NCBI RefSeq assembly: GCF_041886205.1
Contig: NZ_CP169029.1
DNA length: 64,000 nt
Strand: one strand, 5' to 3'
Source of the DNA: Escherichia coli
Lineage (GTDB): Bacteria > Pseudomonadota > Gammaproteobacteria > Enterobacterales > Enterobacteriaceae
Shown: one piece after another, positions 4,335-63,596 of the stretch
How the letters are laid out: the number at the start of each line of letters is the position of its first letter
Numbering within the stretch: the first letter of the stretch is position 1
The notes under the pieces: generated by a model
Databases searched by the model: none
What the model was told of the DNA's origin: nothing
What the model saw: only the letters and a program-made list of their open reading frames with translations
Translations under genes and position numbers: made by a program

Positions 4335-4346
4335 TATTTCCCTACT

Positions 4347-4377
4347 GGCGTATAACGCTCACCAATTGTTATACGCC
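4347..4377 (+). terminator. Hairpin 3' of lysC (possible terminator)
   Basis: 10-bp perfect stem ggcgtataac / gttatacgcc with an 11-nt loop, 13 nt after the lysC stop. No clear U-run. Confidence 0.4.
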
Positions 4378-4478
4378 ATCCTCACTGAAAATATAGATTA
4401 AATAATATCTGAAAAATAAAATCACTCCTGTAGAACAGTATTATAATCACCGAAAAATATTATTTAACAGGAGTGTTA

Positions 4479-5405
4479 ATGGCTACTTTAATGGAAAAAG
4501 ATGCACTTTTAAATGGCACCAGTCAGTGCATCGCGTTTTTATCAAATATCGTTGATAATTGCTCAGTTTCGTCACGTCAGGATTCAGGCGATGATCTCAC
4601 ACGATTAGTCAGCTATCGCGATTATCTTTACTCTACCCCCGCTGAACTTGTTGATTTTACACAGGGAAAGAGTCACCTTCAGCAGATTAGAACTCAATAT
4701 CAGCATGAATTCAACAATACTACGCATTCAGAAAATAAAGCATCTTTTGATTCTATTTGGCAGCGTCTGACAAATCATGAAGTCACACCGCAACAGCATC
4801 CCATTGGTTTTGTTTTAGGTGGGCAACCCGGAGCAGGTAAATCATCTCTGATTGAATTAGCCAAAAGAGAGACAAAAGATAATATAATGATTATTAACGG
4901 TGATGATTTTCGATTTCTACACCCTGATTTTAATTATATCTACCAAAATTATGGGGATGATTTTGTTACCCATACAGCGAAATTTTCCGGCGAAACGGTC
5001 GAACGTGCAATTGAGAGAGCGATAGTCAGTAAACTCAACATTGTTGTCGAAGGAACATTTCGTAATGCCGCTACGCCGTTACAAACATTAAAAAAACTCA
5101 AAGATGCAGGCTACCAAACAGAAGTCATGATAAAAACAACCTCAGCGGCATTAAGCTGGGAAAGCACCAATGAACGGTATAATAAGGACAAAGAGGCGGG
5201 AAATATTGCCCGAAAAGTGGATAAAAACCACCATGATATCGTCACCGGTTTGCTGGCAGAAAATGCCCGCAAGGTGTTTGCTTCGAACCTGTCAGATAAG
5301 TTTGCGGTGTATTCGCGTGAGAAGATGATATTTAGTTCACAAGCGGCAACGAATGACGATATTGCAACGCTTATACAGAATGAAATCAGCGGGAATACAC
5401 AATAA
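4479..5405 (+). CDS. ezeT: Zeta-toxin-family P-loop kinase with an N-terminal extension of about 100 aa (EzeT-like single-chain toxin-antitoxin candidate)
   Basis: ATG at 4479 lies 5 nt after AGGAG (4469-4473). Walker A GGQPGAGKSS is at 4818-4847. The downstream IINGDDFRFLHPDF motif resembles the zeta/PezT catalytic Asp region. There is no separate epsilon-like ORF upstream. The symbol is assigned from recalled domain architecture, not from an alignment. Confidence 0.7.
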   Translation: MATLMEKDALLNGTSQCIAFLSNIVDNCSVSSRQDSGDDLTRLVSYRDYLYSTPAELVDFTQGKSHLQQIRTQYQHEFNNTTHSENKASFDSIWQRLTNHEVTPQQHPIGFVLGGQPGAGKSSLIELAKRETKDNIMIINGDDFRFLHPDFNYIYQNYGDDFVTHTAKFSGETVERAIERAIVSKLNIVVEGTFRNAATPLQTLKKLKDAGYQTEVMIKTTSAALSWESTNERYNKDKEAGNIARKVDKNHHDIVTGLLAENARKVFASNLSDKFAVYSREKMIFSSQAATNDDIATLIQNEISGNTQ

Positions 5406-5431
5406 TAATAAGAGCTGATGGCGTGAAATAA

Positions 5432-5452
5432 CGCCGGGCATCACGCCCGGCG
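5432..5452. terminator. GC-rich hairpin between the convergent kinase and NTase genes (possible bidirectional terminator)
   Basis: cgccgggc-atcac-gcccggcg is an 8-bp stem. The NTase stop codon (5441-5443) sits in the loop. No U-runs on either side. Confidence 0.4.
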
Positions 5453-6241
5453 CATTACCGTCTGGTACATTAAGCTATCCAGTTCCTTAACGTCCCCTTC
5501 TCTGCTATCCGGTAACAGCGGTGGAATTTCCCCACGCGCCAGTTCCGCACGAATAAACGCATGTAACAATGGACGGCGCGGACCATATTCCGCTTCTCCT
5601 GCGCGCTGTTTACGTCCCAGTAATTCGTCTATTTCTGCACGTAACGGCGCATCAAGTTCACTTCCCGCCAGTAGCTCAGCAAAGCGCATTGGCGGCACGC
5701 CTTTTCCCGCTTCGACCCAGCGCACGGCCAGCAGCGGACGCAGCACGTAAAAGTATTTTTTCAGTCGAACTTCATCGCCCTGCAAATATCCGCGGAAGTT
5801 TTTCTGCGCCATCGAATAGTAATGCCAGCGCGCACGCAGCGGAGAAAACCACATTGGGACCATTGCCTTAAGCGCCGTTATCGTTTCTTCATCTTGTTGA
5901 TAGACCACCGGAGAATCCAGCCATTCTATCAGCGTCGGGTTCGCGCCTTTCAATAATCCCAGCGCCTTACGCCACTCCCAACCGGAAACATCTAACTCGT
6001 CGTCGATGGGCAGCTCGATAACATCGCGCGGCGGCTCCACCCGCAGATACCATTCCAGCGGGTGAACATACAAAAACCGTACATCGTAGTCGCTGTCGGG
6101 CGAGGCAAACCCCCAGCCGCGGCTCCCGGATTCACAGGCATACAGCACTTTCACGCCGTAGCGCCGTTCTATTTCTTTTAACTGCTGCGATACCCGTTCG
6201 CGCATCGCAGCACTGACTCCATTTAATGGCATGTTACTCAC
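5441..6241 (-). CDS. Pol-beta-superfamily nucleotidyltransferase, COG3541/PF10127 (RlaP)-like
   Basis: 266-aa ORF with the NTase signature GSRGWGFASPDSDYD (6083-6127; hG[GS]-x9-13-DxD). A helical region follows (WEWRKALGLLKGANPTLIEWLDSPVVY). The GTG at 6241 overlaps the upstream stop; an alternative ATG is at 6232. Confidence 0.75.
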   Translation of the reverse strand: MSNMPLNGVSAAMRERVSQQLKEIERRYGVKVLYACESGSRGWGFASPDSDYDVRFLYVHPLEWYLRVEPPRDVIELPIDDELDVSGWEWRKALGLLKGANPTLIEWLDSPVVYQQDEETITALKAMVPMWFSPLRARWHYYSMAQKNFRGYLQGDEVRLKKYFYVLRPLLAVRWVEAGKGVPPMRFAELLAGSELDAPLRAEIDELLGRKQRAGEAEYGPRRPLLHAFIRAELARGEIPPLLPDSREGDVKELDSLMYQTVMRRA

Positions 6242-7365
6242 CCTTTGATATTAACCAACCCATGCAGAACCTGATCCAGACCGCCAAATACAGAGATGTT
6301 ATCGATCCGCTCAGCCACTCTCTCCAGCGTTTCTAGCTCTTTTAAACGCAACGCTACCGGATTGTTCTCCATGACTTTGGCGGTGTTCAGTAACGAGCGC
6401 GTCGCTGCCGTTTCTTCACGTCGGCGAATCACATTCGCCTGCGCAGATTTCTCCGCCTCAACCAGCTGCGCAAGGATATTTTTCATATCGCCAGGCAGGA
6501 CGATATCTTTCACCCCTAATGAAGCAATCTCCATACCAAATGGCAACATGCGCGATTTCACCTGTTCGCTGACAACGTCATCAATGACCTGTTTATCTTC
6601 CAGCAGTTCATCCAGCGTACGAGTACCTACCGCTTCACGCAGGGCAAATTGCAATTCCCGATACAAATGATCAATCGGCTTCGTTAACTGACTAAATGCT
6701 AATAACACGTCGCTGTAGCGCCAGTTAGCCGCGAGGTTAATCCGCAGATTGACCTTATCTTTCGTTAAGATTTCTTGCCCGCTGACTTCCAGTACCTGCA
6801 AGCGGGTGTCAACCACTTCAGTTTCAACCAGATGGTTAATTTTCCAGTACGCGGTAAGCCCCGGCGGTAACAGCGCCTGCGTTTCACCATCGATTTTCAG
6901 CACGCCTACATGCCAGGCCGGAACCTGCACCGTCAGTATCGCATCGCGGCCTTTAACAACTCCTTTGCGCCGTGGCTGTAATACCGCATTCATCACCTCC
7001 GTTTGTACCGGGACTTGCTGCGTATTCATCCGCACCAGCGTCAAATCATCCTCTACACGCCAGTACAAACGACGCGTTGATGGCAGCAGGATCTCCAGCA
7101 AAATACCGTCCATATACAACGCCCCGGCTTCAGTCTCCGACAAGTCTGCCACCAGGCAATATTTCTCCACCCAATCAGGCTGAAAGCGGCGCAAATAGTC
7201 CGCCAGCACGTCGGGAACTTCGCTACCATCCAGCGTAATCAGCAACACTTCCGGGGTATTAAACCAGGGTAAAAAATGCTCGCCTGCATGTAGCACTTTG
7301 TAGTAATCGCCGTTTCTGGAGAGTAATGCCAGCTGATCTTTTCTTACGCTTATTTTTTTAATCAT
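6238..7365 (-). CDS. SPFH/Band-7 (stomatin/prohibitin/flotillin/HflKC) domain protein with no obvious membrane anchor
   Basis: 375-aa ORF. The C-terminal half carries classic SPFH motifs (QEILTKDKVNLRINL, LREAVGTRTLDELLEDK, FGMEIASLGVKDIVLP, AEKSAQANVIRRREETAA, NPVALRLKELETL). AAGGA lies about 8 nt before the ATG at 7365. No long hydrophobic segment is visible. Confidence 0.8.
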   Translation of the reverse strand: MIKKISVRKDQLALLSRNGDYYKVLHAGEHFLPWFNTPEVLLITLDGSEVPDVLADYLRRFQPDWVEKYCLVADLSETEAGALYMDGILLEILLPSTRRLYWRVEDDLTLVRMNTQQVPVQTEVMNAVLQPRRKGVVKGRDAILTVQVPAWHVGVLKIDGETQALLPPGLTAYWKINHLVETEVVDTRLQVLEVSGQEILTKDKVNLRINLAANWRYSDVLLAFSQLTKPIDHLYRELQFALREAVGTRTLDELLEDKQVIDDVVSEQVKSRMLPFGMEIASLGVKDIVLPGDMKNILAQLVEAEKSAQANVIRRREETAATRSLLNTAKVMENNPVALRLKELETLERVAERIDNISVFGGLDQVLHGLVNIKG

Positions 7366-7518
7366 TATCTATTCCTTGCTTAACAGCCGTCGCGGAAGCA
7401 GACACGAAGCGACAGGGGAATTCCCTTTTGCCTGTTACCCGGCGTCTTTATCGGCGACGTTATCGGGGATCGCTGACTGCGCAATCCCTCATTTTTTATT
7501 TAATAAGTTACAACCAGT

Positions 7519-7650
7519 ATTCATTTCAGGAATGAATGTGGGAATCGAACCCATAATTGGCGTCAAAGGCTGACGGAACACGCCCGGAAAACAGCCTGAC
7601 CGTTCCTGGTGTGCCGACGGGGTTTAACCCCCTTTGAAATTCAGTTTCAA
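7519..7650 (-). ncRNA. Candidate tRNA-like non-coding RNA upstream of the SPFH-NTase operon
   Basis: The minus strand has a canonical T-arm, aUGGG-UUCGAUU-CCCAc (7554-7538). Acceptor-like pairing joins 7645-7639 to 7537-7531 (6 of 7 bp). A cgtc/gacg-closed long arm spans 7619-7561, and there is a small GGGG/CCCC hairpin. The boundaries and the fold are hand-drawn, not computed. Confidence 0.4.
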
Positions 7651-7893
7651 CGCATAGGAGTTATTGCGAGAATCGTGCCAGAAGTAAAAAAAACACCTAA
7701 TCAAATGAAAAATAAAGATTTAATAAATTATTGTTTTTTATTGGGGGAAAACTTTTCGCTAAATTTGTATCTGTATTTATCATCAATTATCAAGAAAGAT
7801 AAATATTTCAGAAGAGAATAAAGGAATATTATCAGTTCTGCTTGCAAATGAATTCCCGTACACTGAATCCATCGGCTCACTGAGGGCACCATC

Positions 7894-29134: not shown

Positions 29135-29210
29135 TGGCGTCCCCTAGGGGATTCGAACCCCTGTTACCGCCGTGAAAGGGCGGTGTCCTGGGCCTCTAGA
29201 CGAAGGGGAC
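29135..29210 (-). tRNA. gltV: tRNA-Glu (UUC) in the 16S-23S spacer
   Basis: Reverse complement gtccccttcgtctagaggcccaggacaccgccctttcacggcggtaacaggggttcgaatcccctaggggacgcca, 76 nt. Confidence 0.98.
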
Positions 29211-63154: not shown

Positions 63155-63230
63155 TGGTGCTGATAGGCAGATTCGAACTGCCGACCTCACCCTTACCAAG
63201 GGTGCGCTCTACCAACTGAGCTATATCAGC
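63155..63230 (-). tRNA. thrT: tRNA-Thr (GGU)
   Basis: Reverse complement gctgatatagctcagttggtagagcgcacccttggtaagggtgaggtcggcagttcgaatctgcctatcagcacca, 76 nt. Confidence 0.98.
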
Positions 63231-63236
63231 ACATCT

Positions 63237-63311
<75 letters not shown>

Positions 63312-63427
63312 ATCCTGGAACTCGGCTACCTGATTTTCATTCTGCACTGAATATCGAGAGAAGCTCTCTTTATTCGAGCCGGTAAGCGAACTTATCGTCT
63401 CGGGCTACGCCATCGCGTGGCCGAAAT

Positions 63428-63512
<85 letters not shown>

Positions 63513-63520
63513 GGACTTGA

Positions 63521-63596
<76 letters not shown>

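Follow-up and report, generated by a model that had tools for sequence, protein, structure and literature searches.

An Escherichia coli SPFH protein with a triplicated entry module and no predicted membrane anchor belongs to a family linked to RNA repair

Introduction

SPFH proteins are usually described as scaffolds of membrane microdomains, and the E. coli proteins HflK/HflC, QmcA and YqiK have N-terminal transmembrane anchors. We asked what role could fall to an E. coli SPFH protein in which these anchors have no predicted counterpart and whose gene lies between a structured leader RNA and a nucleotidyltransferase gene. The protein is encoded in a 64,000-nt stretch of the E. coli chromosome (the window), which also carries pgi, lysC, yjbD, rluF, pepE, yjbB and metH. 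A first-pass annotation had suggested that it might be a soluble oligomer holding an RNA, or the nucleotidyltransferase, in a cytoplasmic cage or scaffold, an idea that the genomic context described below supports.

By its sequence, the protein belongs to the Rtc-linked Band-7 RNA-repair family already predicted in 2016. Burroughs and Aravind reportedly arrived computationally at the family, its RNA-repair context and the idea of a scaffold, and are also said to have predicted a 'b7a-tRNA' beside Band-7 proteins in RtcB operons. The RNA-repair function has been hypothetical ever since: the searchable literature reports no experiment on the assembly or function of an Rtc-linked Band-7 protein, and the sole deletion study used conditions unrelated to RNA damage. 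The family is of interest as it places cage-building parts on an apparently anchorless subunit tied to RNA repair. What may be new here is the replacement of the anchor by repeats of the SPFH entry module, a series of homologs with three, five or seven modules, and an E. coli operon that is reduced and has a derived RNA. In E. coli, the most tractable organism, the set comes down to a minimum of one RNA, one SPFH protein and one nucleotidyltransferase, and some strains naturally carry it while others do not. These features make the roles of Band-7 proteins and of tRNA-like RNAs in RNA repair directly testable. The same system lets a soluble SPFH cage, and its resemblance to the vault particle, be tested.

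Results

The interval 6238..7365 on the minus strand is exactly one open reading frame, running from 7365 down to 6238 and encoding 375 amino acids, and its translation contains both peptides quoted in the first-pass annotation. Pfam Band_7 (PF01145) covers residues 147-318 with 94.7 bits (cut-off 23.6; E 8.9e-27), the alpha/beta fold of SPFH proteins is present, and RefSeq names the product 'slipin family protein'. The NCBIfam equivalog models for HflC and HflK score it far below their cut-offs (30.2 vs 134.4 bits and 27.9 vs 159.4 bits, respectively), the HflK/HflC models overall giving 20-30 bits against cut-offs of 134-660.

The absence of a transmembrane anchor, claimed earlier for this protein, is a prediction from hydropathy, lipobox and cysteine content, and all three agree with it. 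The 19-residue Kyte-Doolittle mean peaks at 1.13 (usual limit 1.6), and no more than 11 consecutive residues lack a charged or amide residue. The sequence contains no lipobox and a single cysteine, at position 70; its N-terminus has no amphipathic segment and consists of a beta-module. Over 67 family members the same hydropathy maximum has a median of 1.16, with four members at 1.7-1.8. The protein is acidic, with a net charge of -8, and the modules R1 and R2 described below are not basic; charge was therefore rejected as support for RNA binding. The dN/dS ratio is 0.09 for the whole protein and 0.13 for the N-terminal modules (Klebsiella pair), with an overall range of 0.05-0.13. Thus the entire protein, N-terminal modules included, is under purifying selection.

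The N-terminal region had been described as an internal duplication of the SPFH entry motif. The repeat is real, but the copies are three rather than two, and family profiles are needed to see them (HHalign 98-99%). In a single-sequence test the pair originally proposed, residues 5-47 and 145-204, obtained a local score of 23 against 19.8 +/- 3.9 for shuffles (p = 0.21), and the top internal match on the single sequence joined residues 80-121 to 153-197 (p about 0.03-0.05). When family profiles were compared by HHalign, R1 (1-50) matched R3 (143-190) with a probability of 98.9% (E 2e-17), and R2 (70-118), the copy that had been missed, matched R1 at 98.7% and R3 at 99.1%. Likewise, the consensus of 67 family members has three copies of the motif E.aL...dG.....L.PG. 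With a module HMM, the protein scores significantly at residues 2-45, 72-118 and 144-190; the HMM was built from the family including the E. coli query, and its E-values for this query are somewhat circular. An AlphaFold2 monomer model, made with the alignment of 67 family members, has a mean pLDDT of 91.6 and shows a five-strand pattern three times. Such a model had been put forward as a check on the duplication, and in it residues 1-142 are predicted to form two five-strand modules like R3, the SPFH entry. Together the profiles and the model indicate an N-terminal architecture of one five-strand module in triplicate, R1, R2 and R3 (Table 1).

Table 1. Features of the SPFH operon and its convergent neighbour in the window
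Feature	Position	Strand	Basis or description
Sigma-54 type -24/-12 promoter (predicted), TGGCACgattcTCGCA	7665..7680	-	One mismatch to TGGCAC-N5-TTGCA
Structured leader RNA, putative derived tRNA-like element	7529..7645	-	Comparative folding; perfect tRNA T-arm UGGGUUCGAUUCCCA at 7539-7553
Conserved remainder of the 5' leader, T-arm element to start codon	7366..7528	-	Blocks across E. coli, Klebsiella, Superficieibacter, Mangrovibacter, Lonsdalea
R1 (five strands, residues 2-44) and two helices (52-69)	7159..7365	-	AlphaFold pLDDT >90; HHalign 98.7-98.9%
R2 (five strands, 70-114), helix (122-129) and linker, residues 70-142	6940..7158	-	AlphaFold, HHalign, module HMM
R3 (143-186; canonical SPFH/Band_7 entry) and alpha/beta SPFH core, residues 143-290	6496..6939	-	
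Long 'wall' helix, residues 291-334	6364..6495	-	Model helix 292-334 (43 residues); aligns with stomatin helical region
Cap helix 336-353, putative barrel strand NISVFGGL 355-362, C-terminal helix 362-372	6241..6363	-	Residues 335-375
RlaP-family (PF10127) nucleotidyltransferase	5441..6241	-	Pfam RlaP E 3.4e-95
Terminator-like GC-rich hairpin and U-run, CGCCGGGC-GUGAU-GCCCGGCG-UUAUUU	5426..5453	-	Seen in the alignment of a weak SorX match
Zeta-toxin-family P-loop kinase, convergent	4473..5405	+	Pfam Zeta_toxin E 1.5e-40

The best match in both sequence and structure is to stomatin and the prokaryotic stomatins or slipins (human 16-mer 9oh9; P. horikoshii PH1511). The phmmer alignment with human stomatin (9oh9) covers query residues 185-373 and places NISVFGGL on STIVFPLP, a strand of the 16-strand barrel. 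The SPFH core, wall helix, cap helix and barrel-strand motif of stomatin (nomenclature of PMC12344292) all align with the E. coli protein, which thus keeps the wall helix, cap helix and barrel strand that hold the stomatin, HflK/C and prohibitin rings together. What stomatin has and this protein, by prediction, lacks are the hydrophobic hairpin or transmembrane segment and the palmitoylation-type cysteines; 142 residues of duplicated beta-modules occupy that place. Residues 354-361 have a low pLDDT in the monomer model (55-67), which would be compatible with a segment that becomes ordered only in the oligomer. When the N-terminal profile was compared with PDB sequences nothing significant was found, the HflK entry region ranking second at E 0.44. 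The major vault protein (MVP) shares with the E. coli protein an SPFH-like shoulder followed by a cap helix, but its repeat domains (Pfam Vault) were not found there, and an assignment of the N-terminal modules as MVP repeats was rejected.

We then examined the family at large. The first homolog search returned near-identical E. coli proteins only, and the diversity reported here comes from a search of representatives, which when run exhaustively gave 4914 cluster representatives with E values of 1e-3 or lower, 544 of them at 1e-30 or lower. Members are mostly ~375 aa long and match end to end, while in longer ones (500-700 aa) a 146-residue N-terminal unit occurs two or three times. The module HMM counted three modules in 95 proteins, five in 14 and seven in 2, suggesting that the wall of the assembled structure comes in two-module steps. 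PA4582/PaFlo8 of P. aeruginosa, described as 'of unknown function', is a member. Its deletion gave no phenotype in growth, motility, biofilm formation, oxidative stress or virulence; RNA damage was not assayed (PMC13086221).

The neighbours of the SPFH gene in other bacteria point to RNA repair. RtcB ligates RNA ends, RtcA cyclises them and RtcR responds to damaged tRNA. In a sample of 80 loci from Proteobacteria, Cyanobacteria, Chloroflexota and others, with neighbours assigned by Pfam and counted by tblastn, RtcB was encoded in 35 loci (32 downstream on the same strand) and RtcR, a sigma-54 activator, in 29 (28 of them divergent and upstream of the SPFH gene). RtcA was found in 14 loci. RlaP was found in 18, always downstream of the SPFH gene and with the strand shared; 12 loci encode an HNH nuclease and 7 a treble-clef zinc-finger protein. 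No Rtc or RlaP gene was present in the fetched DNA of about half of the 80 loci. The proteins encoded in the RtcR/RtcB/RtcA/RlaP loci are 40-82% identical to the E. coli SPFH protein over residues 1-375. Across the 80 loci the SPFH gene has no conserved membrane-protein or NfeD neighbour. NfeD is the typical operon partner of prokaryotic stomatins (PMC2644673; compare PaFlo3/4, PMC13086221), whereas the E. coli SPFH gene neighbours RlaP and a zeta-toxin kinase, in a context of RNA repair and not of membrane proteins.

The fullest layout in the family comprises a divergent rtcR, a sigma-54 promoter, one or two tRNA-like RNAs and the genes for SPFH, RtcB, RtcA and RlaP in this order. Of 78 loci scanned for a sigma-54 -24/-12 motif, 29 have one upstream, compared with 3 in a coding-region control, and ARAGORN calls at least one same-strand tRNA-like gene within 700 nt upstream in 47 of 79, for which we estimate from typical tRNA gene density a chance rate well under 1%. 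A covariance model from 36 of these genes found six more. Their D-arm and T-arm are almost invariant and their anticodon arm is hypervariable; several anticodon arms end in GAAA or UUCG tetraloops, and thus at least those RNAs cannot decode. These genes match the predicted b7a-tRNA.

In E. coli the operon lies on a 3.4-kb island (about 4335-7763) that stands in for ~120 bp of the K-12 lysC-yjbD spacer. The island is matched in 1641 of 5426 complete E. coli genomes (about 30%), always on the chromosome, and is covered to at least 80% in 1424; a 26-nt piece of the leader (7432-7457) persists in K-12 as a remnant. On the minus strand the order is sigma-54 promoter motif, structured RNA, further leader, SPFH, RlaP and hairpin, the last lying between the convergent RlaP and zeta genes. 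The GTG start of RlaP overlaps the SPFH stop (GTGA), the RefSeq start being an ATG 9 nt further downstream; the two genes are presumably co-transcribed. RlaP adds 1-2 nucleotides to RNA 3'-OH ends with a preference for damaged RNA, shows little NTP specificity in vitro and labels ribosomal RNA as well as full-length and cleaved tRNAs (bioRxiv 10.64898/2025.12.29.696909).

Like the Rtc-linked Band-7 loci, the E. coli locus has an RlaP neighbour, a sigma-54 promoter motif and an upstream RNA with a tRNA T-arm; unlike in those loci, adjacent rtcR, rtcB and rtcA are missing, and none of the three is on the island. RtcB and RtcA have their genes elsewhere in the E. coli genome. At the corresponding chromosomal site, Klebsiella, Superficieibacter, Mangrovibacter and Lonsdalea also have the SPFH-RlaP pair, there with rtcR, which E. 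coli has lost at this site; rtcR matches occur in 4990 of 5426 E. coli genomes, the top ones being annotated rtcR. The -24/-12 motif is not rare in the window (4 matches vs 1.8 expected). It is invariant and identically placed across six enterobacterial loci; the motif and GATA-rich blocks ~100 nt further up can also be aligned with the DNA between rtcR and rtcB in the resident E. coli rtc operon. The alignment with the resident rtcBA promoter and the presence of rtcR in most genomes make control in trans plausible, and resident RtcR probably switches the operon on upon RNA damage.

The leader RNA differs from the canonical element. The b7a-tRNA covariance model matches the E. coli leader in the T-arm alone (13.2 bits; E 4e-4 within 528 nt), and the Lonsdalea and Providencia leaders match it weakly in an acceptor-like stem plus T-arm. 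RNAalifold of six enterobacterial leaders gave 30 pairs, 13 of which show compensatory changes; 93.9% of cells are paired, compared with 38-46% with slid partners, and none of 500 shuffles reached the observed value. As six related sequences are few, this support is good but not conclusive. Minimum-free-energy folding of the leader was no better than that of shuffles (z = -0.49), and default ARAGORN and Rfam called no RNA near the SPFH gene. With relaxed settings ARAGORN reported a 'tRNA-Glu with a 27-nt intron' at 7645-7529; comparative folding favours another structure, and on that ground the call was not accepted as a tRNA. At the position that the canonical b7a-tRNA takes in relatives, E. 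coli thus has a conserved structured RNA that keeps the T-arm alone and has a different, covarying 5' domain with two hairpins. By comparison with the model, then, the E. coli RNA looks like a derived form, and it may have lost the role of the canonical element.

Discussion

We suggest, with a probability of roughly 0.6, that the protein is the SPFH component of an RtcR/sigma-54-type RNA-repair module and forms a cytoplasmic ring or cage that scaffolds RNA and repair enzymes; our confidence in the family assignment and the architecture is much higher. The subunit would be of the stomatin type, with the membrane hairpin swapped for two extra tandem copies of the first SPFH five-strand module. 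Since every element of the stomatin ring is kept and the membrane hairpin alone is missing, assembly into a soluble cytoplasmic ring or cage appears most likely, with R1-R2 lengthening the wall at the end that in other SPFH cages contacts the membrane. By binding the co-transcribed tRNA-like RNA and RlaP, and in most relatives RtcB and RtcA, such a cage could act as a scaffold or compartment that unites them on damaged tRNA or rRNA. In E. coli a reduced module of promoter, derived leader RNA, SPFH protein and RlaP, presumably under RtcR control, would work with the resident RtcB and RtcA.

Two other readings give the protein a different role. The ring could be a negative regulator, a sequestering cage that keeps RlaP or RtcB from acting before there is damage, the tRNA-like RNA serving as decoy or trigger. 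Known SPFH cages do enclose and restrain their clients (HflK/C-FtsH structures), the unspecific activity of RlaP in vitro suggests that it could be harmful if unrestrained, and the start-stop overlap of the SPFH and RlaP genes suggests coupled production. As far as the cage itself is concerned, a positive and a negative role could equally account for the data; the presumed co-induction of all components from one promoter, however, fits a standing inhibitor poorly, and we regard this reading as unlikely. Slightly harder to sustain, in our judgement, is a membrane-microdomain protein after all, which a partner or the R1/R2 surface would bring to the inner membrane to organise or regulate a membrane protein there, in the manner of stomatin, QmcA or HflK/C. 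Nearly all characterised SPFH rings are membrane-bound (PMC12624060), and peripheral binding is compatible with the hydrophobicity plots. The SPFH protein SamI (YdjI) of B. subtilis is described as cytosolic and recruited by the membrane proteins SamG and SamH (bioRxiv 10.64898/2026.02.06.704340). SamI is thus a precedent, likened by description and not by sequence, for an SPFH protein without an anchor of its own; unlike the E. coli protein it is recruited to the membrane and belongs to a PspA envelope-stress operon, with no described link to RNA repair. Against membrane recruitment, what is conserved around the gene in the 80 loci is a set of cytoplasmic RNA enzymes together with an RNA and a transcription factor, not membrane-protein or NfeD genes, and the protein has neither lipobox nor amphipathic N-terminus and but one cysteine.

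Still less probable are two readings of the island as such. The E. coli copy might be a decaying, non-functional remnant of a fuller rtc-type operon: the island is without rtcR, rtcB and rtcA, its tRNA-like RNA is degenerate, and in K-12 the island is lost except for a short piece. Decay, though, is very hard to reconcile with both reading frames being intact in at least 1424 genomes, with dN/dS of 0.05-0.13 including the N-terminal modules and with compensatory changes in the leader RNA; moreover, Klebsiella, Superficieibacter, Mangrovibacter and Lonsdalea maintain the same short SPFH-RlaP arrangement, in their case alongside rtcR. Least credible of all is that SPFH, RlaP and the zeta-toxin kinase work together as a toxin-antitoxin or anti-phage abortive-infection cassette. 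The significant zeta match on the same 3.4-kb island and the variable presence of the island invite this idea, which is largely refuted: the zeta gene is convergent, separated by the terminator-like hairpin and confined to the E. coli island, with no homolog in any of the 80 related loci, and it was rejected as part of the SPFH system. Of SPFH, RlaP and zeta, the PADLOC defence models matched zeta alone, and that marginally.

Within the scaffold model that we favour, a more far-reaching and rather doubtful version would have the subunits form closed, membrane-free, vault-like nanocompartments. Stomatin-type cap rings would be extended by a barrel of modules, the number of which (three, five or seven) would set the height, and two halves meeting at their N-termini would enclose the tRNA-like RNA and the RNA-repair enzymes, making the particle a bacterial counterpart or even an evolutionary relative of the eukaryotic vault, which has a vault RNA.

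An analogous pairing of a ring protein with a tRNA-like RNA occurs in the rtcBA operons of Salmonella and others, where Ro60 (Rsr) and Y RNA/YrlA stand with RtcB under RtcR. An Rfam search of the window at E up to 1 gave no match to YrlA or Y RNA. The Ro60 fold is unrelated to SPFH; Ro60/Y RNA and Band-7/b7a-tRNA have been proposed as interchangeable.

tRNA-like elements and tRNA arrays upstream of SPFH genes

Among the b7a-type elements, tRNA-like RNAs that precede the SPFH gene, several carry a GC-rich stem capped by a GAAA or UUCG tetraloop in place of the anticodon loop, with the D-arm and T-arm nearly invariant. Many loci display a tandem pair of such tRNA-like elements, spaced ~75 nt apart. 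In the window, the b7a covariance model also matched an ordinary tRNA gene cluster (63158-63596, minus strand) and, weakly (21 bits), the stretch at 29142-29207 (minus strand).

In many family loci, tRNA genes of ordinary appearance are lined up in arrays directly 5' of the b7a-type element and SPFH gene; each array holds between 9 and more than 20 of them, all on the SPFH strand. A spare tRNA set beside an RNA-repair module could provide a back-up supply against anticodon nucleases. The array of one locus from an uncultured gammaproteobacterium (L062) also contains a GOLLD RNA, positioned 5' of the SPFH-RtcB-RlaP genes, whose score of 153.5 bits barely exceeds the Rfam gathering score of 150.

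The leader, the zeta-type kinase and probable loss of the E. coli island

The ~160 nt running from the T-arm element to the SPFH start codon (window 7366-7528, minus strand) are kept across enterobacterial genera and hold further hairpins, one of which is listed in the table. This conserved leader may form a second RNA domain or serve to control translation.

A gene for a zeta-toxin/PezT-family kinase with an N-terminal extension of ~100 residues is found on the E. coli island specifically. No obvious antitoxin gene accompanies it, and the gap to lysC is merely 138 nt. Because zeta-type kinases are P-loop kinases, a putative role as an RNA-end kinase is conceivable in this RNA-repair context.

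E. coli K-12, which is devoid of the island, retains a 26-nt remnant of the leader (window 7432-7457, 88% identity, E 2e-4) as well as the GATA-rich sequence 5' of the promoter (window 7764-7800), suggesting a deletion of the module in K-12, as opposed to its absence from the start. In two pigeon isolates (NZ_CP090448.1 and NZ_CP101866.1, matches H1 and H2 of the search against complete E. coli genomes) an IS1 element interrupts the island; the match is split into two pieces and an IS1 transposase is annotated beneath.

Recurrent neighbour genes

In 12 loci, five of which are listed in the table, the SPFH strand carries a gene for an HNH endonuclease (Pfam HNH_5), in most cases located after the tRNA array and before the b7a element. 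In some operons of beta- and gammaproteobacteria, a gene for a small treble-clef zinc-finger protein (zf_Tbcl; seven loci, three listed) is inserted between those for SPFH and RtcB. The Nostoc locus L054 carries a reverse transcriptase gene flanked by a tRNA-Met-like gene pair on one side and the SPFH gene on the other; its protein cluster has 3 members in 3 loci.

Features at SPFH-family loci (L-numbers) and in the window.
Feature	Locus	Coordinates	Strand	Remark
HNH_5 endonuclease gene	L007	4890-5483	SPFH	
HNH_5 endonuclease gene	L016	4201-5475	SPFH	
HNH_5 endonuclease gene	L052	4819-5415	SPFH	
HNH_5 endonuclease gene	L062	4807-5373	SPFH	
HNH_5 endonuclease gene	L073	4268-4915	SPFH	
zf_Tbcl protein gene	L011	7200-7562		Pfam
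zf_Tbcl protein gene	L015	7180-7539		Pfam
zf_Tbcl protein gene	L020	3776-4228		Pfam
Reverse transcriptase gene	L054	894-2000	+	RVT_1, E 1e-24
tRNA array	L033	1687-5740	SPFH	
tRNA array	L017	1332-3294	SPFH	
tRNA array	L036	4420-5406	SPFH	
tRNA array	L045	32-2864	SPFH	
tRNA array	L049	3370-7426	SPFH	
tRNA array	L062	1533-5669	SPFH	
GOLLD RNA	L062	2333-2820	+	Rfam RF02032
Tetraloop b7a-type element	L012	5652-5724		example
Tetraloop b7a-type element	L011	5678-5749		example
Tetraloop b7a-type element	L019	5681-5752		example
Tetraloop b7a-type element	L079	5498-5567		example
Zeta-toxin/PezT-family P-loop kinase gene	window	4473-5405	+	
Leader hairpin	window	~7490-7468	-	GGGAUUGC-GCAGUCA-GCGAUCCC
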